A DNA stretch of 64,000 nt from an uncultured Bacteroidales bacterium (lineage in GTDB: Bacteria > Bacteroidota > Bacteroidia > Bacteroidales > F082), in NCBI GenBank assembly GCA_937896895.1, contig CALBNV010000078.1:1408-65407 (forward strand), read 5' to 3'. Positions 25,985 to 40,723 of the stretch are shown here, piece by piece. A model generated the notes under the pieces. The model saw only the letters and a program-made list of their open reading frames with translations, did not search any database and was not told where the DNA came from. The position numbers and the translations under genes were made by a program. Numbering within the stretch: position 1 is the stretch's first letter; each line of letters starts with the position of its first letter.

Positions 25985-27403
25985 TTAATAAAACAAATCA
26001 TCAAGTACAACATTGTTGGCTGAAATTTCAGAATACATGTTTGTTTTTGTTCCGTATGTTGTTATAATTGTTATTTGGAATCCCTTGCGTTGCTTGGTTT
26101 CCGACATGAATGTTTCGGCACGGTGTATGATTTTGTTGTATTCATCTTTTTGAAGAGAATATTCGTTTCTGGAGAATTTGATTTCACAGATGCTGATGAT
26201 GCCGTCTGCTCTGTCGATTATCAAGTCTATTTGGGCGGACGGTTCGGTGGATGTGCTGCGCCAGGAATAATATTCGGTGTGGATTCTGTCCAAGTGCATT
26301 GCGGAAAGAATCTGGTCGATGTGGCACATGCAGACTCGTTCGTATGCAAGGCCGTAGAATGTGCTGATTTGCGGCGATCCGATTTTGTTGCTCCAGAAAT
26401 GCTTGTCGGTGCTTGGCTTCTTGCAAAAGGCATTATGGAATACCGTGTAGAAATCAATCATCTGGTAGATGCCGCCATTGTGTTTTGTGCCGTTGTTGTA
26501 CATTCTTATGAAGTCGCAATATTGCAAGTCATCGAGCATGCGTGTTAGGTTGCCGCTTGTGGGTATGTTGAGTTTCTCTGAAATTTCGTTGCGTGTAAGT
26601 CCTTTCTTGTGTTCGCATAGAAGCCTGATTATTTCCATGTAACCGTTGGGATTCTTGTATAAAGAACTGAATAGGCGGCTGTATTCGTCTTTCATTTCAG
26701 CCTCATCGCCGAAAAACAGTCTGTCGATATTGTTTGCCACACTGTCGTTGAAATCGATTTTGCTCAGATAATACGGTATGCCCCCCGTTGTCATAAACAT
26801 CTGAAGCATGTCCATTCTTGTCCAGCATGTCTTGTGGTTTTTCGCGTAGAGTTCTACTTGTTTCAATGTGAAAGGACGCAGGTGGATGCTGTGGGTTATT
26901 CTGTTGTGAAGGCCGCCTTTGTTGTTCACAATGTTTCTGAGCATCCACGATGTCGCCGAGCCGCAGACGACAAACATCATGTTGTCCATCCATGAAGCTT
27001 TTCCGTTCCAGAAATAGTCGAGGGCGTGCGTGAAGCCTGAATGTTGGGTGTCGAAGCAGGGGAGTTCATCGATGAACACGACGATTCTTCCGTTTCGTCT
27101 TTTCTTTTTTGCAAGCAATGATGCAAGGACGTCGAACATGTCAATCCATGTCTTGGGTCTCGCTCCTGAATATCCGTGTGTCCGCAAGGCTGAAAAGAAT
27201 GCACTCATTTCCTCTTCCCGGTTGCCGTCGATGATGCCAGTCGCGTAAAAGTCGAATTTGTCCTCAAAGTATTGTCTTACAAGGAAGGTCTTGCCAACTC
27301 TTCGTCTGCCGAATAAAGCAATGAATTCCGCTTTTCCGCTTGATTTGAAATTGTCGAGCAATTCAAATTCTCGTTCTCGCCCTATTATCTTTTCCATTGT
27401 CAT
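25985..27403 (-). CDS. AAA-type ATP-binding protein (archaeal-ATPase/DUF234-like orphan ATPase)
   Basis: 472 aa with Walker A GRRRVGKT and Walker B VVFIDELP. A winged-helix-like segment sits near residue 270. A TATCTTTG -7 box (complement of 27425-27432) lies 22 nt upstream of the ATG. Confidence 0.75.
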   Translation of the reverse strand: MTMEKIIGREREFELLDNFKSSGKAEFIALFGRRRVGKTFLVRQYFEDKFDFYATGIIDGNREEEMSAFFSALRTHGYSGARPKTWIDMFDVLASLLAKKKRRNGRIVVFIDELPCFDTQHSGFTHALDYFWNGKASWMDNMMFVVCGSATSWMLRNIVNNKGGLHNRITHSIHLRPFTLKQVELYAKNHKTCWTRMDMLQMFMTTGGIPYYLSKIDFNDSVANNIDRLFFGDEAEMKDEYSRLFSSLYKNPNGYMEIIRLLCEHKKGLTRNEISEKLNIPTSGNLTRMLDDLQYCDFIRMYNNGTKHNGGIYQMIDFYTVFHNAFCKKPSTDKHFWSNKIGSPQISTFYGLAYERVCMCHIDQILSAMHLDRIHTEYYSWRSTSTEPSAQIDLIIDRADGIISICEIKFSRNEYSLQKDEYNKIIHRAETFMSETKQRKGFQITIITTYGTKTNMYSEISANNVVLDDLFY

Positions 27404-27503: not shown

Positions 27504-27845
27504 CCGGATTGGATTATGTCATGAATGTAAATTTAATTGAAAAATCCGGTTTGTTTTTGTTTTGTCTTGATAAAAATTCATGTATTTGCCGTGTCATACT
27601 GAAAATATGACAAAACATATATAAAAGCGTTTTGCTTTATTTCTTCTGCTTGAAAATTTGGCGATTTAAAAGTAAATGAAGAAAAATAAGTAAGATGTTC
27701 ATGCTTTGTGCGTGAGCTTTACTTGTTTCTGTATTAACTGGGTCACGCCAAATACCTCAAGCAGCGGAAACGAGTTGAGTTTCACGCTTTTTTTGTGCTT
27801 TGTCGGAAACAAGATGACAAAATACTGAAGCAAAAACTTTGTGAT

Positions 27846-28223
27846 ATGTCAACGTCAAACGAACGTATCATCTTGAACATCGGGAAGAGAATGGTTAAGG
27901 TTGCCGTGCATGAAATCCTGTATGTTGTCTGCGAAGACTACATCTGTTCTTTGACTGTGTCAGACGGTAGGACATATCAGGTTTCACGTTCATTGCAGTC
28001 TGTCCATGAGGAGTTGGACGGTTGTGGATTTCAGTACATCAGCCGAGATGTGCTGGTAAACATGCACCATGTAGTGGAGCTTCAGCGCACATCTGCCAGA
28101 AAATGGTGCGCCAAAATGAGCGACGGAAGCGTGTTTTTCGTTGCTTCGAGGCGGCAGAAAGGCTTCATGGAGGCATTTCTGACTACACGTTCACGAGCGA
28201 ATACGACACGCTCACGTGAGTAA
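27846..28223 (+). CDS. stand-alone LytTR-domain DNA-binding protein (no receiver domain)
   Basis: 125 aa from ATG 27846. The LytTR pattern is VAVHEILYVVCEDYICSLTVSDGRTYQVSRSLQSVHEEL...FQYISRDVLVNMHHV. The track start at 27795 is a GTG. Confidence 0.75.
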   Translation: MSTSNERIILNIGKRMVKVAVHEILYVVCEDYICSLTVSDGRTYQVSRSLQSVHEELDGCGFQYISRDVLVNMHHVVELQRTSARKWCAKMSDGSVFFVASRRQKGFMEAFLTTRSRANTTRSRE

Positions 28224-28237
28224 ACCTACACGCTCAC
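28185..28237 (+). promoter_or_regulatory. three phased 10-bp direct repeats (ACACGTTCAC, ACACGCTCAC, ACACGCTCAC): candidate LytTR operator
   Basis: Repeats sit at 28185-28194, 28206-28215 and 28228-28237, in 21/22-bp phasing. The last two are separated by a 12-bp spacer. The same pair recurs at 37256-37287. Confidence 0.55.
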
Positions 28238-28606
28238 GAAAAATAATGACACAGTTGTATTTTGTCGATTGAAAACATTTATTTTTGGGGAAGTAAGATT
28301 CGCAGACAATATTTTTTGAATGTCGCTGTTAGTAACATGTTATTTGCAGTCTCATTCAGAATGTGGTTGGTAAAAACGTAAACATGAATGAAATTTGCAA
28401 AATAATAACCTTGACAAACATCTGGAGGCTCGGGAAAAACAACTTCAGCAGGTTGGTGCCTCGTCGGATGGATGATGCAGAGATGCTCTCTGACGACGTT
28501 CCTGATTTGTTGGCAGGCAGTGATCGGGAAACCAGAGATGGCAGGCAAAAGGCAGCCAATAATTAAAATTATACATAAAAATTGTCGAAATAATAAATTT
28601 GGAAAT

Positions 28607-28855
28607 ATGAAAAAAGACAAATTGATTCAAGAGTTTGAAAACTTGAAAATTGAAAATGCCAATAGCTTTGTTGGTGGTAAACATAATGAAAACTTTTGCG
28701 ATCGTGAAATATATGCATGGACCGCTGATCCCAACGGACCAGCAGGAAATGGGCAAATGGATCCAACTGGCAGATACCAACAGGTGTTCGATTTGGACCC
28801 CACAACCAATGATACAATTGTAGGAGACACAATTTCAAACCGTCCCAGGTGGTAA
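28607..28855 (+). CDS. RiPP precursor peptide with double-glycine leader
   Basis: 82 aa. The leader is MKKDKLIQEFENLKIENANSFVGG, with hydrophobic residues at -4, -12 and -15. The 58-aa core is rich in Asp and Thr. The cognate C39-ABC exporter and maturases lie downstream. Confidence 0.75.
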   Translation: MKKDKLIQEFENLKIENANSFVGGKHNENFCDREIYAWTADPNGPAGNGQMDPTGRYQQVFDLDPTTNDTIVGDTISNRPRW

Positions 28856-28870
28856 TTTTAATTTTTACGA

Positions 28871-28900
28871 TTGCGTTGGGCGATATTTCGCCCAACGCAA
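28871..28900 (+). terminator. perfect 12-bp stem-loop just after the precursor gene (attenuator or transcript-stabilising hairpin)
   Basis: TTGCGTTGGGCG-ATATTT-CGCCCAACGCAA starts 16 nt after the precursor stop codon. Only TTT follows, so it is probably a leaky terminator. Confidence 0.5.
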
Positions 28901-28918
28901 TTTGACAGATACTCCACC

Positions 28919-30493
28919 ATGAAAAAAGTAAGCATATTCGTTTATCTGTTTGTAAGTTTTTCTTTCGTTTGGGCGCAGTATCCAAACGATGGTTTGTATT
29001 ACAAAGCAAACATGGCTTATTGGACGCGCGATGATTCGGTAACCTATGCGCTTTATTCCAAGTTAGATTCCATCGAGCCAATTGATAGTTTTTACGACTT
29101 GTGGAACTATTATTTTGCTTCCGAGATGATGGAAGACTCGTTGAAAAGCAAAGAATTGTTGTTCCGTCTGGTCGCAAAAGGTTTGGACAAAGGCGGAGTC
29201 GAGCAGGCTTTTTTACATGACATCGGATTGCATAAGCGTTCCTATTGGACCGAACTGGATTCCGTAATCAGCATCGCGGAGAGCAAAAGATGCCAGCCTT
29301 TCATTGATTCATTAGCGACGATGAGGGAAATTGACCAAGCCGTCAGGCAAAAACCATGGACGGACGAAAACAGAAGAAAAATGAGGGTCATTGATTCAAT
29401 TAACACTGTTAAACTCGAGTTGCTGATAGCACAATATGGTTTCCCGACATGGGAACTTGTCGGCCGCGACGGTGCTGAAAACGCATGGCTTATCGCTCAG
29501 CATTCTGCAACGCTCTTGCCTTGGTATTTGAAACACTACAGACAAGCCGTGCAGGAAAACAATGCTGATATTCACTGTTTAGCACTTATGGAAGACAGAT
29601 TTCTAATGCATCAAGGCCGTCCTCAGATCTATGGTACTCAATTAAGTTTTAGCGATTCTGCGGTTGGATTTCACCCAATAGCCGATGTGAAGCATGTCAA
29701 TGAACGCAGGTTTGCTGTTGGTTGGTGCCCCATTGAGAAGATTGCAAAAAGCCATGTTGGGGTTGATTCGGTTTTGATTTTCGCTGGAGATCTGGATTAT
29801 TCAAATAATTATTATCCAAGTATTGTGAATTTGTATACTTCCCAACCAACTGATGAAAACGTTACGAGGAATTTTGTAATTGAGAAAACCACGATGTATT
29901 GTTTCCCATGCGATTTGGAAGCGTTTTCCTGTCATTTGTTTGAGATTGAGAAAGACACTGCAAGGGCGGTAATCCAAGCCAAAAAGATTGTACTATGTGG
30001 AAGGCGCATTGATGAGGAATGGAATTTACCCCAATTGTTGATGGATTCGGTAAGAGCAAATTACACCGAACTTCGTGCCGATTATGAAAGGATGATAACC
30101 AGGGATGACGACATGATGCTTAATGCGATAACTTTTTTCGACACGCTTGTCAAGGTTTTGGAAAGTGGTTCTTATCCTCGTTACACCATCGATGCGTGGA
30201 ATGGAAACATCAAAAAACTTATTTCAACCAAGTCAAAAACATTGACAAAGAATGACTACGGTGCCTTTTTCGAATGGCTGTACAATCAAGTCGCTGTCGG
30301 TAACTATCATCTTTTCGACTACGCGGAATTGTATGATGAAGTGTATCATCGCCTATATGGGAAATCGTATTACGGGCAGAAACGTTTCGAGAAAAAAGTA
30401 CGGATATATAAACCGAAGAATGTTGATGAGCGCCGCGCTGGAATAATGCTTCCGAGTTTGGAAATGTGGGAAAGAACAATGGAAATGTTGTGA
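28919..30493 (+). CDS. secreted hypothetical protein (524 aa) embedded in the RiPP cluster; central region DUF6624-like (tentative)
   Basis: Signal peptide MKKVSIFVYLFVSFSFVWAQ from ATG 28919. The track start at 28871 is a TTG inside the hairpin. The segment IDQAVRQ...QYGFPTWELVGRDGAENAWLIAQHS...YGTQ resembles a Bacteroidota DUF family, from memory. Confidence 0.6.
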   Translation: MKKVSIFVYLFVSFSFVWAQYPNDGLYYKANMAYWTRDDSVTYALYSKLDSIEPIDSFYDLWNYYFASEMMEDSLKSKELLFRLVAKGLDKGGVEQAFLHDIGLHKRSYWTELDSVISIAESKRCQPFIDSLATMREIDQAVRQKPWTDENRRKMRVIDSINTVKLELLIAQYGFPTWELVGRDGAENAWLIAQHSATLLPWYLKHYRQAVQENNADIHCLALMEDRFLMHQGRPQIYGTQLSFSDSAVGFHPIADVKHVNERRFAVGWCPIEKIAKSHVGVDSVLIFAGDLDYSNNYYPSIVNLYTSQPTDENVTRNFVIEKTTMYCFPCDLEAFSCHLFEIEKDTARAVIQAKKIVLCGRRIDEEWNLPQLLMDSVRANYTELRADYERMITRDDDMMLNAITFFDTLVKVLESGSYPRYTIDAWNGNIKKLISTKSKTLTKNDYGAFFEWLYNQVAVGNYHLFDYAELYDEVYHRLYGKSYYGQKRFEKKVRIYKPKNVDERRAGIMLPSLEMWERTMEML

Positions 30494-30527: not shown

Positions 30528-31475
30528 ATGGTAGTAGTGTTTTCCATAAATGAAGATAATTCTACAGAAGATGTGGTTGATTGGTTTGACCATTATGGAG
30601 AGAACTTTTATCGCATAAATAATATAGATGATATAAATTCTTTTATAGAAAAACATCAAATGTTATTGATTCCTGAAACGGAAAATGCAGTGACTTCGGT
30701 ATGGTATCGAAAATCTCCCTCAAAGTCTTTGACAACAAATGTCTTCAACAATCCAAATACTGACAGAAGTGTTAGATTGTTTGCTTATTCTGAGCAAAAT
30801 GGCTTGTTTGAATCACTGTTCTCTTTGCTTGGAGAGAAGAAATGGCTAAACCATTGGTCGAATAGTTCTCCTGCAAAATTCCATCAATTGTTACTGGCAT
30901 CAAAATGTGGATTGAATGTCCCTGCTACGTATGTTACGAATTCCAAAGAACAATTATTGGATTTCATGTCACACCATGCCAGCATGATTGTTAAGCCTAT
31001 ACAAGATGTCGAATCCATTGAATTAGATGGGAAACGTTATTTTCAATACACAAAGGTACTTCACCGGGAAGATATTAACAGATTAAATAATACATTTTTT
31101 CCTGGCTTATTCCAAAAGGAAATTAAAAAGAATCTGGAAATCAGATCTTTCTATTTGGATGGCAAATTATATAGTATGGCGATATGCTCTTCATTTGACA
31201 GGCAAACTCAAATGGATTTTCGCCGATATAATGACAAATATCCCAATAGGACTATTCCATACCAATTACCAAAAGAAATCGAAAAGAAGTTGAACATCTT
31301 TATGGAGGAAATGAACTTAAACTGTGGCTCCATAGACTTGATATTGGATGATTCTGGAGATTACTATTTTTTGGAAGTAAACCCAGTTGGTCAATTCGGA
31401 ATGGTATCCTATCCATGCAATTATTATTTGGAAAGAAAAATAGCAAACTTTTTAATTCAATCAAATAATGAATAA
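30528..31475 (+). CDS. ATP-grasp peptide maturase (grasp-with-spasm/microviridin-type ligase family)
   Basis: 315 aa. The N-terminus MVVVFSINEDNSTEDVVDWF is typical of RiPP ATP-grasp ligases. ATP-grasp motifs are NLEIRSFYLDGK, DFRRYN and YYFLEVNPVGQFG. Confidence 0.8.
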   Translation: MVVVFSINEDNSTEDVVDWFDHYGENFYRINNIDDINSFIEKHQMLLIPETENAVTSVWYRKSPSKSLTTNVFNNPNTDRSVRLFAYSEQNGLFESLFSLLGEKKWLNHWSNSSPAKFHQLLLASKCGLNVPATYVTNSKEQLLDFMSHHASMIVKPIQDVESIELDGKRYFQYTKVLHREDINRLNNTFFPGLFQKEIKKNLEIRSFYLDGKLYSMAICSSFDRQTQMDFRRYNDKYPNRTIPYQLPKEIEKKLNIFMEEMNLNCGSIDLILDDSGDYYFLEVNPVGQFGMVSYPCNYYLERKIANFLIQSNNE

Positions 31476-31609
31476 ATCGTTTAAGGAAATTGTATATAAA
31501 AACAGGCTGCCCATCACTCTTTTGTTTATGGAAAATGTTGTTACAGAGAACACAAAACCATATATTTCCATAACCATTGATTATAAGAATGGTAAAAAAA
31601 TGATCGCTC

Positions 31610-32770
31610 ATGATTTTTACAAGCATATATCAACGTATTAAAGAAAACAAGCCGTTGTATTTCCGCTTTTGGGCGAATTGCATCTTGGTAAAGGGCTACA
31701 AGAACGGCATCCTGTTTGATTTGCAAAGAGGACGAAGCGTGAATGTCTCGCGTCTCTTTTGCGAAACATACGAACGCTATAAAGGCGAATGCATCAGTTC
31801 TGTTTTTAAAGATGAAAACTTTGATGAAAGGAAAGGCTATGTTAAAATGCTCGATTTCTTTATCAAAAACGACTTCGGAATCCTGACAGATGACGTAAAT
31901 ACACTTCCTGATTTGTCAATGGAATATGACTCCCCTTTCTGGGCCACCAACGTCATCTTGGAGACAGACAGCGATGCCGACCCAGGTTTTATGCTTGATG
32001 TCATTGAAAAACTATCTCAAGGGCATGTCCAAGCCGTACAGATTAACGACTGCGGCCATATTACAGTTCAACAACTTAGAAGGATAGGGGAAATCACAAT
32101 CAACAGCCAACTTCATTACATCAACATATACACAAATTACAGAACAGCATATTCCCAAAAACAATTGAATTTCATATATAGGAACAACCGTTTTCGTAAC
32201 ATTATTTTTATGGGAGCTCCGAGAGAACGAGATTTCAACAATGAAGAAATGGGGTTGGCTAATATCGCTTACATGAAGAAGGTGATAGATTTTAAATGTT
32301 GTGGAAATGTCAGAAAAGATCTGTTTGTTTTCAATCAACCATTTTTCATCGAAGCTCACTCCTGCAACACATGTCTGAACCGCAAAATAAGTATTGATAA
32401 AAACGGGGTGATAAAAAATTGTACATTAATGGAGAATGGATTCGGCAATATACAGGACTATTCGGTCAGAGAGATTGTAGATTTGCCTGGTTTTCAAAAT
32501 TTGTGGAATCTTTCGAAAGACGAAATTGATGTTTGCAAAGATTGTGAATACAGATATATTTGCACTGATTGCCGCCATTTCATCAAAGACAAAGAAAACA
32601 TCAAGTCCCAACCATCAAAATGCAAATACAACCCATACATCGGTAAGTGGGAGGGGGAAAATGGCTATGTTTCTGTAGAAGAATGTGGTAAATATTTACA
32701 AAACACAGGGTATATTCCTAATGAAGATATAATATGTGAATTAAATAAAAGAATCGAAAATACTCAATGA
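31610..32770 (+). CDS. SPASM-domain peptide maturase lacking the radical-SAM CxxxCxxC motif
   Basis: 386 aa. The C-terminal Cys pattern is CNTCLNRKISIDKNGVIKNC ... CKDCEYRYICTDC ... C, which is SPASM-like. There is no CxxxCxxC anywhere in the protein. The stop overlaps the ABC gene start (ATGA). Confidence 0.75.
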   Translation: MIFTSIYQRIKENKPLYFRFWANCILVKGYKNGILFDLQRGRSVNVSRLFCETYERYKGECISSVFKDENFDERKGYVKMLDFFIKNDFGILTDDVNTLPDLSMEYDSPFWATNVILETDSDADPGFMLDVIEKLSQGHVQAVQINDCGHITVQQLRRIGEITINSQLHYINIYTNYRTAYSQKQLNFIYRNNRFRNIIFMGAPRERDFNNEEMGLANIAYMKKVIDFKCCGNVRKDLFVFNQPFFIEAHSCNTCLNRKISIDKNGVIKNCTLMENGFGNIQDYSVREIVDLPGFQNLWNLSKDEIDVCKDCEYRYICTDCRHFIKDKENIKSQPSKCKYNPYIGKWEGENGYVSVEECGKYLQNTGYIPNEDIICELNKRIENTQ

Positions 32771-34953
32771 GTTTCCCTTTTCCTTTCTTCCCTCAACTCG
32801 ACGCCATGGACTGCGGGCCGGCTTGCCTCCGCATGATAGCGAAATATTATGGCCGTCATTATACCCTCGAAGGGCTGAGGCAACGCTGCCACATCAGCCG
32901 CGAGGGGGTGAGCCTGCTCGGGATAAGCAGCGCCGCCGAGGAGATAGGGTTCAAGACCATTGGCGTACACCTGCCGTTCAGCCAGCTAAAAGACGAAGTG
33001 CCGCTGCCGTGCATCGTCCATTGGCGACAAAACCATTTCGTGGTGGTGTATAAGATAAAGCGCGGAACGGTGTATGTGGCAGACCCCGCATCAGGGCTGC
33101 TGAAATATTCCGAAAAGGAATTTTTAGACGGATGGATAAGCCGGCACGACAACGGCAACGAAGGCATAGCACTGCTGCTCGAGCCGCAACCCGACTTCTA
33201 CGCCGAAGAAGGCGAGAAACCCGACAAGGCAAAGTTCTCGTTCATACTCAAATACCTGAAACCTTACAGGAAACTCATCGCGCAGCTGTTCATGGGAATG
33301 ATAATGGGCACGCTGCTGCAGCTCATATTCCCGTTCTTCACCCAGAGCATCGTTGACTATGGCATCGGCAACAGCAACCTGAGTTTCGTCACGCTGATAC
33401 TCGTGGCGCAGCTCACCCTATACGTCGCACAGACCGCCGTGGAGTTCATCCGCTCGTGGATATTGCTGCACATAAGCACGCGTATAAACATCAGCATCAT
33501 ATCCGACTTCCTGATAAAACTGATGAAACTGCCGATAGGCTTCTTCGACACCAAGATGATAGGCGACCTCATGCAGCGCATCGGCGACCACCAGCGCATC
33601 GAGTCATTCCTCACCTCATCGACACTCAACACGCTGTTCTCGTTCGTCACGTTCATCGTGTTCGCAGTGATACTCGCTTTTTACAGCATAAAACTGCTTG
33701 TCGTGTTCCTGATCGGCAGCACACTCTATGTCATCTGGGTCTTGATATTCCTGAAATATCGCCGCGAACTCGACTACAAGCGTTTCTCACAGGCGTCGGC
33801 GGAACAGAGCAATCTCATACAGATGATAACAGGAATGCAGGAGATTAAGCTCAACAACTGCGAGAAACAGAAACGCTGGGAATGGGAGAACATCCAGGCC
33901 AAACTCTTCAAGGTGAGCGTCAGTAGCCTGAAACTCAGCCAGTGGCAGCAGAGCGGCGCGGTGTTCATCAACGAGACGAAGAACATCTTGATTTCTTATA
34001 TCTCCGCAAGGGCGGTGATACAGGGCGACATGAGCCTCGGCATGATGATGGCAGTGCAGACCATCGTCGGACAGCTCAACTCGCCGATAAGCCAGATGAT
34101 CGGTTTCATACAGAGCGCACAGGATGCAAAGATAAGCCTCGAACGTCTCGGCGAGATACACAACAAGAAAGACGAGACGGAAGATGGCGACGGCCGCACC
34201 TCGATATTCACCGACGACAGAGGCATCGGCATTGAGAGCCTCACTTTCCATTACGACCCATTGTCGGACGCGGTGCTCAACGACGTGAACCTCACCACTC
34301 CTGAAGGGAAGGTGACAGCCATCGTGGGCATGAGCGGAAGCGGCAAGACGACGTTGGTGAAGCTGCTGCTCGGCTTCTACCCGCCGACAGGCGGAAGCAT
34401 CCGCGTCGGCGGAATAAACATGAAGAACATCGACCCGAAGGCATGGCGCGACCGCTGCGGAACGGTTATGCAGGAAGGCTTCATCTTCTCCGACAGCATC
34501 GCAAAGAACATAGCTATCGGCGAAGACCACATCGACGAGCGACGGCTGCTCCACGCCGCGAAAGTGGCGAACATACAAGACATGATAGAGAGCCTGCCTC
34601 TCGGCTACAATACAAAAATCGGGCAGGAAGGCAACGGCATCTCGCAAGGCCAGAAACAGCGCATACTGATCGCCCGCGCAGTCTATAAAAACCCCGATTA
34701 TATCTTCCTCGACGAGGCGACTAACTCGCTCGACGCGAACAACGAGCGCGTCATCATGGACAACCTGCAGGAGTTTTTCAAGGGGAAGACGGTCGTTGTT
34801 GTGGCGCACCGACTGAGCACCGTCAAGAACGCCGACCAGATTGTCGTCATCAACCACGGAAAAATCACCGAGACGGGCACTCACGAGGAACTGACCGCAC
34901 GACGCGGCGAATACTACACTCTGGTTAAGAATCAACTTGAACTTGGAAAATGA
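32767..34953 (+). CDS. peptidase C39 domain-containing ABC transporter (bacteriocin/RiPP processing-export ATPase/permease)
   Basis: 728 aa. The N-terminal C39 domain has a catalytic Cys (QLDAMDCGPACL), His (NHFVVVY) and ADPASG. A 6-TM domain follows. Walker A is GMSGSGKTT, the signature is ISQGQKQR and Walker B is IFLDEATNSLD. Confidence 0.9.
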   Translation: MSFPFPFFPQLDAMDCGPACLRMIAKYYGRHYTLEGLRQRCHISREGVSLLGISSAAEEIGFKTIGVHLPFSQLKDEVPLPCIVHWRQNHFVVVYKIKRGTVYVADPASGLLKYSEKEFLDGWISRHDNGNEGIALLLEPQPDFYAEEGEKPDKAKFSFILKYLKPYRKLIAQLFMGMIMGTLLQLIFPFFTQSIVDYGIGNSNLSFVTLILVAQLTLYVAQTAVEFIRSWILLHISTRINISIISDFLIKLMKLPIGFFDTKMIGDLMQRIGDHQRIESFLTSSTLNTLFSFVTFIVFAVILAFYSIKLLVVFLIGSTLYVIWVLIFLKYRRELDYKRFSQASAEQSNLIQMITGMQEIKLNNCEKQKRWEWENIQAKLFKVSVSSLKLSQWQQSGAVFINETKNILISYISARAVIQGDMSLGMMMAVQTIVGQLNSPISQMIGFIQSAQDAKISLERLGEIHNKKDETEDGDGRTSIFTDDRGIGIESLTFHYDPLSDAVLNDVNLTTPEGKVTAIVGMSGSGKTTLVKLLLGFYPPTGGSIRVGGINMKNIDPKAWRDRCGTVMQEGFIFSDSIAKNIAIGEDHIDERRLLHAAKVANIQDMIESLPLGYNTKIGQEGNGISQGQKQRILIARAVYKNPDYIFLDEATNSLDANNERVIMDNLQEFFKGKTVVVVAHRLSTVKNADQIVVINHGKITETGTHEELTARRGEYYTLVKNQLELGK

Positions 34954-38869: not shown

Positions 38870-40723
38870 ATGAAAAGACACTTACTTGCAATCATTGCCA
38901 TCATGATGATGGCATTCAACGCAAAAGCCCAGACAAGCGGACAATGCGGCGATAACCTTACGTGGAATTTTGACTCGTCAACAGGAACACTGACAATTAG
39001 TGGGACAGGTGACATGTGGGATGGTGTCTGTCCGTGGTGGGACTATTACCACCAGGTGACAGATTTAGTAATTGGCAACTCGGTAACATCAACAGGTGCC
39101 GGAGCGTTCGCAAATCATCCAAATTTGACAAACGTTACTTTGGGTAATTCTTTGATCAGTATTGGCGAATGTTCTTTTATGGGTTGCACAAAAATGCTAT
39201 CAGTTGAAATTCCAAATTCAGTGTTGTCAATTGGTGACGAGGCGTTTTGTGCATGTTATCAGTTGTGCGATGTAACTATCGGAAATTCAGTTACTTATAT
39301 AGGCGAATCGGCGTTTGAAAGCAGTGGTATCACTTCGATTGTTATTCCTGATTCTGTAGTTACTTTGGGTGGTAGTGTTTTTCACCAATGTAGAGATTTG
39401 GAATCGGTTGTTATCGGGGATTCTGTGATTGCCATACCGGAAAATGCTTTCGGAATGTGTTACAAGTTAAAATCTGTAACAATTGGAAACTCTGTTGTGT
39501 CTATTGGTGGTTATGCTTTCCTTTGGTGCATGGAATTGGAGAACGTGACACTGGGCAACTCTTTGGAAGCTATTGGTGAAATGGCTTTTAGTGAGTGTAT
39601 CAATCTGAAAAACATCGAATTTCCAAATTCATTGAAAACGATAGGTCAAGAGGCGTTTGATGGTGTTGAATTAGAAAGTCTTACATTTGGAAATTCGTTG
39701 GTTTACATAGGAAGACAAGCGTTTTATAACAATTCCCAACTACAATCATTGACGTTTCAGAACTCGCCGTGTACTATAGCAAAAAGTGCTTTTTCATCTT
39801 GTTATGCATTGCAATCTGTCGAATTTGGGAATGCAATAGAAAGCATCGACACGTTGGCATTTTCAGGTTGCCCTATCAGATTGTTGGAGCTGCCGAACTC
39901 GTTGGTACATTTGGGCGACAGGGCATTCAGCGGTAACGATGAGTTGAGAAAAGTCACAATTCCAGCATCTCTTACATCACTTGAAGGCAATGTTTTCACT
40001 TTTTGCCATTATCTTGAGGAAATCATTGTCGATGCAAACAATCCGAAATACGACAGTCGTGATAATTGCAACGCAATAATTGAAACCGAAACGAATACGT
40101 TGATAACGGGTTGCAGAGCCACGTCTTTACCATATTCCGTAGAGGTTATTGGTCGGGAGGCTTTCGCCGGAGCGGGGATGCTCACGTCAATAGATATTGT
40201 CGGACAAGTCAACACTATTGGAGAATATGCCTTCCGTGATTGTACATATTTATCGGATGTCATAATAGGAGATCATGTTGAAACTATTGGCAGTCGAGCG
40301 TTTTATTCAGACTACAATATCAGAGAGATCAGTTGCCATGCGGTGATTCCGCCTGTTTGCGCTGACGATGTTTTTGAACAGGAAGTCGAAGTGTTGGCGA
40401 ATCTTTATGTCCCGAATGGCTGCAAGGAAGCGTATGAAACCTCGCCCAAGTGGATGAATTTCCTGAATATCATCGAACGCGCTGTCGATGTCAATGAAAC
40501 ATCTTTATCCGCTGTTTCCATCAGTCCAAATCCCGCTTCGGATTTCATCAACATTACCTGTGAAAACATGAAATCAATCGAAATCTTGTCGTTGGAAGGA
40601 AAAATCATCAAGAATACGATGGTTTCAGGCAACATAACACAGATTGACATCAGCGATTTAAACAGTGGGGTTTATATTTGCAGAATCGATGGTGACAAAA
40701 TTTGGAAAATCATTAAGAAATAG
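38870..40723 (+). CDS. leucine-rich repeat (BspA-like) surface protein with T9SS C-terminal sorting domain
   Basis: 617 aa with a signal peptide. It has many repeats of about 23 aa (IGNSVTSIGxxAFxxCxxL) and a C-terminal ISPNPASDFINI...GVYICRIDGDKIWKIIKK. Confidence 0.85.
   Translation: MKRHLLAIIAIMMMAFNAKAQTSGQCGDNLTWNFDSSTGTLTISGTGDMWDGVCPWWDYYHQVTDLVIGNSVTSTGAGAFANHPNLTNVTLGNSLISIGECSFMGCTKMLSVEIPNSVLSIGDEAFCACYQLCDVTIGNSVTYIGESAFESSGITSIVIPDSVVTLGGSVFHQCRDLESVVIGDSVIAIPENAFGMCYKLKSVTIGNSVVSIGGYAFLWCMELENVTLGNSLEAIGEMAFSECINLKNIEFPNSLKTIGQEAFDGVELESLTFGNSLVYIGRQAFYNNSQLQSLTFQNSPCTIAKSAFSSCYALQSVEFGNAIESIDTLAFSGCPIRLLELPNSLVHLGDRAFSGNDELRKVTIPASLTSLEGNVFTFCHYLEEIIVDANNPKYDSRDNCNAIIETETNTLITGCRATSLPYSVEVIGREAFAGAGMLTSIDIVGQVNTIGEYAFRDCTYLSDVIIGDHVETIGSRAFYSDYNIREISCHAVIPPVCADDVFEQEVEVLANLYVPNGCKEAYETSPKWMNFLNIIERAVDVNETSLSAVSISPNPASDFINITCENMKSIEILSLEGKIIKNTMVSGNITQIDISDLNSGVYICRIDGDKIWKIIKK

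Follow-up and report, generated by a model that had tools for sequence, protein, structure and literature searches.

The locus analyzed here raises the question of how a short Asp- and Thr-rich peptide encoded behind a double-glycine leader is modified, and which residues of its core take part. The window, i.e. the whole stretch of 64,000 nucleotides from an uncultured Bacteroidales bacterium, harbors the gene of this precursor, the translation of which consists of leader, core and stop codon:

28607-28855, + strand: precursor peptide gene, 82 aa (coordinates include the stop codon)
28607..28678, + strand: double-glycine leader, 24 aa, ending in GG, MKKDKLIQEFENLKIENANSFVGG
28679..28852, + strand: core peptide, 58 aa, KHNENFCDREIYAWTADPNGPAGNGQMDPTGRYQQVFDLDPTTNDTIVGDTISNRPRW

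The core contains seven Asp, two Glu, six Thr, one Ser, one Lys and a single Cys (Cys7, TGC codon at 28697-28699), and its aromatic residues are Y12, W14, Y33 and W58. The motif D-P-(N/T)-(G/T) occurs three times, as DPNG within ADPNG (core position 17, nt 28727-28738), DPTG within MDPTG (position 28, nt 28760-28771) and DPTT within LDPTT (position 40, nt 28796-28807). An earlier sequence-only reading had given the same core length, composition, aromatic positions, motifs and single Cys, all of which agree with the translation. At least three DP[NT][GT] motifs were obtained once per 1,000,000 composition-preserving shuffles of the core, a figure that overstates the significance since the motif was chosen post hoc; the fair test is the DP dipeptide, which was present at least three times in 1.0% of 1,000,000 such shuffles. 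The ATG at 28607 is the start common to all precursor relatives, comparison with two homologs gave low pN/pS ratios that indicate purifying selection on both leader (0.14-0.30) and core (0.29-0.46), and no second leader-type ORF is located within the window. These findings mark the ORF as a genuine gene. A longer precursor, with an N-terminal extension from 28472, was rejected, as the distant homologs all begin with MKKDKL. The precursor matched no NCBIfam model at E<=0.01 nor at E<=10, and no precursor family of Pfam at E<=1. The only Pfam match, Bys1 (E 0.002), was sub-threshold (18.6 bits compared to a cutoff of 24.3) and is taken as a chance match.

The precursor gene heads a cassette that runs in one direction, with overlapping stops and starts, in the order precursor, stem-loop, DUF6624, ATP-grasp, LPL-family, SPASM, C39-ABC exporter and HlyD. 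A gene for a LytTR protein is located upstream:

27846..28223, + strand: stand-alone LytTR DNA-binding protein, ~125 aa from the ATG at 27846, frame open to a GTG at 27795; LytTR PF04397, E 1.6e-12
28869..28902, + strand: stem-loop, perfect 15-bp stem, 14 nt past the precursor stop, no U-run
28919..30493, + strand: secreted DUF6624 protein, 524 aa, signal peptide MKKVSIFVYLFVSFSFVWAQ; PF20329, E 5.3e-27
30528..31475, + strand: ATP-grasp peptide maturase (gwsG), 315 aa; TIGR04192, 293.4 bits compared to a cutoff of 230, profile positions 1-318 of 318
31468..31641, + strand: LPL-family small protein, 57 aa, with RLPITLLF and DFYKHISTY; overlaps the ATP-grasp and SPASM genes
31610..32770, + strand: SPASM-domain protein (gwsS), 386 aa; TIGR04193, 263.4 bits compared to a cutoff of 175
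32767..34953, + strand: Peptidase-C39 ABC exporter, 728 aa; matches to TIGR01193 and TIGR03796
34950..36275, + strand: HlyD-family periplasmic adaptor, 441 aa; TIGR01843, E 6e-32

The same gene order was found in L001 (an NCBI assembly) and in the metagenomic contigs L085-L087, L088, L090, L092, L094 and L095. Ten contexts with the cassette were retrieved for the clade of the window; in each of them the ATP-grasp and SPASM genes form one overlapping string with the precursor gene, and in every close locus the DUF6624 gene sits between precursor and ATP-grasp. The SPASM gene starts 135 nt downstream of the ATP-grasp stop, and the 57-aa ORF bridges this gap. Of 89 loci, 84 contain an equivalent small ORF; 48 of these 84 harbor an N-terminal LP[LIVM], and the C-terminal motif FYKxIS, in the form FYK(P/H/V)IS, is strongly conserved; this C-terminal motif was found nowhere in the sections of PMC8939145 considered here. 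The exporter possesses the catalytic-Cys motif QLDAMDCGPAC at its N-terminus, and its orthologs match Peptidase_C39, ABC_membrane and ABC_tran of Pfam. In L007, L012, L018, L025, L040 and L077 two ATP-grasp/SPASM pairs are located at most 6 kb apart; thus the whole cassette is duplicated at times.

The ATP-grasp protein is homologous to characterized graspetide synthetases. Its relatives in the PDB are AMdnB (7m4s, E 8.6e-33), 5ig8 (4.3e-29), CdnC (7mgv, 3e-22), 5ig9 and 9bou, with E-values extending to 2.2e-14, and a role of the precursor as the substrate of an ATP-grasp RiPP system is supported. The cassette can be assigned to the grasp-with-SPASM system (NCBIfam TIGR04192/TIGR04193, gwsG/gwsS). 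The sections of Makarova et al. 2022 (PMC8939145) considered here describe a Bacteroidetes-specific branch 5 that combines ATP-grasp and SPASM proteins with an LPL-family protein encoded just upstream of the SPASM gene, and whose loci also encode a secreted protein of 'cluster 23' and GG-leader precursors of great diversity. The window resembles this system in that its ATP-grasp and SPASM proteins score above the curated cutoffs, an LPL ORF precedes the SPASM gene, and a GG-leader precursor, a C39-ABC exporter with HlyD, a probable cluster 23 protein (DUF6624) and a Bacteroidota host are present. It differs in that the precursor matches none of the curated models TIGR04139, TIGR04149 and PF14406. 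This is no bar to membership in the system, because most branch 5 precursors likewise miss these models, according to the same sections of PMC8939145. A further difference is the core subfamily with (C/T)x7T, MD, DxD and DTI, which is undescribed in the parts of PMC8939145 and PMC13097080 considered. Carter et al. 2026 stated that a SPASM protein accompanies every group 14 graspetide cluster and flagged DUF6624 as a possible new biosynthetic enzyme (PMC13097080); solely by way of the former statement, the window cassette probably belongs to the 'group 14' graspetides. Clusters with gwsG/gwsS occur widely among Bacteroidota, among them species of the gut, the rumen and the mouth, and were described on conjugative elements of Porphyromonas gingivalis in a 2026 preprint. 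In the literature, no characterized product was found for any grasp-with-SPASM cluster. The window precursor represents a new subfamily within this known but uncharacterized RiPP system.

Homology of the ATP-grasp protein extends to the microviridin-type synthetases (MdnB/MdnC, AMdnB, CdnC), and as in that class a leader-dependent, Thr/Asp-rich substrate and about three rings would be expected. Unlike in microviridins, the core harbors neither TxKxPSDx(D/E)(D/E) nor a conserved Lys for a lactam, and SPASM, LPL and DUF6624 genes are additional obligatory components. The microviridin leader is presumably of the PFFARFL type, whereas that of the window is of the double-glycine type. Scores of the ATP-grasp protein against TIGR04185 and TIGR04184 are far below their cutoffs. 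Partner-protein-dependent graspetide synthetases are known, and as in rosaritide MirC, the window synthetase adjoins a strictly co-occurring, non-catalytic-looking protein (PMC13097080). However, the partner families of MirC are unrelated to the SPASM and LPL proteins of the window, and the likeness is one of analogy.

Close homologs of the precursor alone are limited to two, with 81% and 71% identity, among 5.8 billion proteins. Further relatives were taken from the contexts of ATP-grasp homologs with 56-88% identity and from a profile search. When 1.84 billion representatives were searched exhaustively with a profile, 19 proteins were obtained at E-values up to 0.001; the leader family is thus small as a whole. 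Scanning of genome contigs with the single ATP-grasp sequence yielded no relatives, and an alignment query yielded 80 loci. The relatives share the leader pattern MKKDKLIQEF..LKI.NA...GG, with M1, K2, K3, L6, E9, F10, L13, I15, A18, G23 and G24 being near-invariant despite differing cores, and the cores behind this conserved leader are of unrelated types. In the four nearest species-representative loci (Bacteroidales MAGs, ATP-grasp identity 47-49%) the cores are unlike that of the window, and two of the four lack Cys.

Cores sharing the architecture of the window were aligned (n=15, window included). Type A comprises the window, P0002, L085 and P0003, type B comprises P0124, P0125, L088, P0126, P0129, P0136, P0138, P0141, P0142 and P0144, and P0143 stands between the two. 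Position 7 is occupied by Cys in five and by Thr in ten cores, and by no other residue. T15 (codon 28721-28723) is invariant in all 15 and located exactly eight residues past position 7 in every sequence. G20 is shared by 14 of the 15 cores and falls in a loop that contains PxG and is mostly constant in length. D28 (28760-28762) is also invariant (15/15) and preceded by Met in 14 cores and by Leu in P0003, and D38 (28790-28792), in a cluster reading DxD or DPD, is invariant. Each core contains between one and three DTI motifs, which in the window are D45-T46-I47 (28811-28819) and D50-T51-I52 (28826-28834); between D28 and the DTI motif, the alignment leaves an ambiguity of two residues. The donor/acceptor positions C/T7, T15, T46, D28, D38 and D45 show little or no variation, i.e. 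the cores have conserved donor (Thr/Ser/Lys) and acceptor (Asp/Glu) positions as graspetides do. The sequence-only reading had proposed ester crosslinking by the ATP-grasp enzyme, and this part of its proposal fits both the conserved Thr and Asp positions and the graspetide-type maturase. AlphaFold, run with the family alignment, gave a precursor model with a mean pLDDT of 57, in which core residues 6-16 pair with 25-36 as a beta-hairpin with DPNGPAGN at the turn (block-mean pLDDT 62-86).

It is probable that the gene encodes the precursor of a graspetide made by the grasp-with-SPASM cassette, with rings formed as follows. The leader would dock the peptide on the ATP-grasp protein, for which the LPL and SPASM proteins may serve as partners, and the core would pre-fold as a beta-hairpin around the DPNGPAGN turn. 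The ATP-grasp protein would then phosphorylate the side chains of the conserved Asp residues, namely D28, D38 and those of the DTI motifs, and T15, the residue at position 7 and T46/T51 would attack the acyl-phosphates, giving about three side-chain macrocycles. Nested rings appear most likely, with T15-D28 inside, position 7-D38 outside and one more link in the DTI region at the C-terminus; T15-D28 nested within C7-D38 would be the most economical topology. Because D45-T46 and D50-T51 are adjacent pairs, which cannot link to each other, the third ring is left undefined. Where position 7 is Cys, this residue would take the role of Thr and form a thioester. Finally, the C39-ABC exporter together with HlyD would cleave after GG, remove the leader and secrete the product. 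We infer the crosslinks, their topology and the thioester from the observed gene content and conservation pattern, the ring connectivity being drawn from a model of mean pLDDT 57 and from 15-16 sequences, most of them metagenomic. The conserved core residues might instead be modified by the DUF6624, LPL or SPASM protein. With this precursor subfamily, tests can focus on a few defined residues, i.e. position 7, T15, D28, D38 and the DTI motifs.

Position 7 deserves particular attention. L095 and L096 each contain two tandem precursor-plus-DUF6624 modules (L095 5001-8939; L096 2050-5988), one with Cys7 and the other with Thr7, upstream of a single ATP-grasp/LPL/SPASM set. Judging from this arrangement, the same enzyme set must accept both Cys and Thr at position 7. 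Since the two residues alternate at this position, and do so within a locus with one ATP-grasp, Cys7 is probably a ring nucleophile in the role of Thr; a small residue with a structural role is the alternative. Cys is accepted by ester-forming graspetide synthetases as a substitute for the natural nucleophile; in the papers considered, the thioesters that result are described solely as non-native products from engineered substrates (PMC12291112, PMC13097080). A natural Cys/Thr swap at one donor site provides a handle on whether such enzymes make thioesters in nature. The tandem modules also indicate that precursor and DUF6624 are duplicated jointly, and suggest a role of the secreted protein specific to its peptide, e.g. 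in immunity or periplasmic maturation. The two DUF6624 copies are 59% identical. The DUF6624 protein, for which no match was found in the PDB, probably represents the family that is known from graspetide loci as 'cluster 23'. A native Cys7-Asp thioester (thiolactone) ring, combined with a radical-SAM-less Fe-S SPASM partner and with peptide-specific periplasmic DUF6624 immunity or maturation factors, is conceivable but on balance unlikely. What lifts the peptide above routine is that Cys and Thr alternate at a probable donor and that the precursor has been duplicated together with DUF6624; in other respects it is an ordinary member of its class.

The conserved position 7 could also be the target of the SPASM protein, which would introduce a single thioether or ether there and leave only the remaining Thr/Asp pairs to the ATP-grasp protein. 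Radical SAM/SPASM enzymes form Cys thioethers as well as Thr ethers, and the SPASM protein of the window is universally paired with this ATP-grasp. It retains the full set of eight SPASM cysteines (C231, C255, C271, C309, C312, C318, C321 and C338), the C-terminal pattern of which (Cx10Gx4C, followed by Cx2Cx5Cx2C and C) resembles that of radical SAM/SPASM maturases, and 26 of 38 family members match Pfam SPASM. Makarova et al. 2022, in the sections considered, name the family a radical SAM enzyme, propose thioethers for branch 5 and suggest that the small upstream protein may act in a PqqD-like manner, another likeness to radical SAM/SPASM systems (PMC8939145). However, none of the 89 SPASM proteins compared, which comprise that of the window and 88 homologs from loci L001-L093, contains the radical-SAM motif CxxxCxxC, their first 230 residues include a single conserved Cys (C24), and Pfam Radical_SAM (PF04055) matched none of 38 family members at E<=1. 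Lacking a site for the SAM-cleaving cluster, the protein cannot, to judge from these homologs, perform canonical radical-SAM chemistry. In addition, the L006 and L007 cores contain no Cys at all. Modification of position 7 by the SPASM protein is therefore improbable.

These results also bear on the class of the product. Sactipeptide and ranthipeptide chemistry was rejected, as the SPASM protein lacks the radical-SAM motif and the core contains one Cys. Several conserved core Cys residues would be expected for such peptides, but the window has one and ten of the 15 aligned cores harbor Thr in its place. Unlike in sactipeptide, ranthipeptide and PqqE-type systems, the SPASM protein has neither a radical-SAM motif or domain nor a match in the PDB; the best hit of the family profile against PDB sequences was a designed repeat protein at a non-significant E of 0.14, and a single-sequence AlphaFold model was unusable (mean pLDDT 39.5). 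The argument of the sequence-only reading that a single Cys speaks against a multi-thioether product holds, with related cores ranging from no Cys to three or more. Its discussion of the SPASM partner in terms of sactipeptides and ranthipeptides turned out to be inapplicable, and to ask which residue this protein links by a thioether is probably the wrong question. As a working view, the protein may bind Fe-S and serve as a partner or scaffold, or it may be a tailoring enzyme with non-radical redox chemistry. To regard it as a radical SAM enzyme would be a mistake, and this alters the choice of worthwhile experiments.

The sequence-only reading had suggested, as a possibility, one omega-ester ring per DPxG unit; in such a model the participating Thr and Asp would be located within or beside the unit. 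Repeated ring modules occur in other graspetides, and three DP[NT][GT] motifs in 58 residues are far above what the composition of the core predicts (1 in 10^6 shuffles, for the post hoc motif). The alignment of precursors from homologous loci, the check that had been proposed for this idea, confirmed the conserved Thr and Asp positions but not the DPxG pattern: the motif count is three in the window, one in three relatives and zero in the other eleven, although their enzymes are orthologous. Type B cores have Gly opposite D17 of the window; P29 and T30 are variable (DGTG, DKRT, DEIV), and T42 and T43 are missing even in the nearest homologs (DP-VN, DPIVN). The first unit, DPNG, looks like a turn-former, because AlphaFold positions DPNGPAGN in the turn of the predicted hairpin. 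One ring per DPxG unit is thus very improbable. As part of the graspetide reading set out above, and with the same confidence, the DPxG motifs are probably sub-lineage-specific elements that form turns or act as spacers, and not ring units. A DP dipeptide near the acidic cluster, though not as a DPxG unit, is retained in 14 of 15 cores, which indicates that Pro near this cluster matters.

Export of the unmodified peptide as a double-glycine bacteriocin or signal that is sensed via LytTR, with the ATP-grasp and SPASM proteins acting elsewhere, would accord with the GG leader, C39-ABC exporter, HlyD and LytTR regulator that are also found at Gram-positive class II bacteriocin and pheromone loci, but is highly improbable, since the precursor gene always lies beside the ATP-grasp/SPASM pair with overlapping genes (linked modification enzymes in ten of ten contexts, where an unmodified class II bacteriocin should have none), the nucleophile and acid positions are conserved, the window contains no other precursor candidate, and no receiver domain was detected by Pfam in the LytTR protein.

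The LytTR gene is located in the same place in L001, L085, L086 and L088, and its product is likely the regulator of the cassette. A candidate operator spans its stop codon:

28186..28260, + strand: direct-repeat array, three to four copies of (G)ACACGCTCAC at ~22 nt spacing

An exact 11-nt repeat is present at 28206 and 28228, and the repeats are retained in L001 and L085. The ~22-nt spacing fits that of the direct repeats in LytTR operators. The ~230 nt upstream of the precursor start (28380-28606) hardly differ between the window, L001 and L085 and are better conserved than the core; this region could be a promoter or a 5' leader. An Rfam scan of 28100-29000 gave no family for 28380-28606; its only match, Lacto-rpoB on the opposite strand over the hairpin, reached 27.1 bits, below the gathering score of 40, and is taken as chance. 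Scans for promoter and terminator consensus sequences gave counts not above those in shuffles.

The stem-loop behind the precursor gene has a free energy of -28.5 kcal/mol (z -6.6), and none of 200 shuffles was equally stable. Hairpins of other sequence are located at the equivalent site in L001, L085, L090, L092, L006, L007, L008 and L002, and compensatory changes are visible in comparison with L001 and L085. The element is likely a partial terminator or an mRNA-stabilizing structure that would raise the level of precursor transcript over that of the enzymes.

Two neighboring genes were also noted. A 472-aa ATPase (Pfam ATPase_2, AAA_14, DUF234), which matches the PADLOC candidate defence family PDC-S27 (E 1e-175), is encoded at 25985-27403 on the - strand, and an ATPase of this type is located directly upstream of the cassette in the window, L085 and L086. 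A BspA-type leucine-rich-repeat protein with a T9SS C-terminal sorting domain, encoded at 38870-40723, fits a Bacteroidota host.
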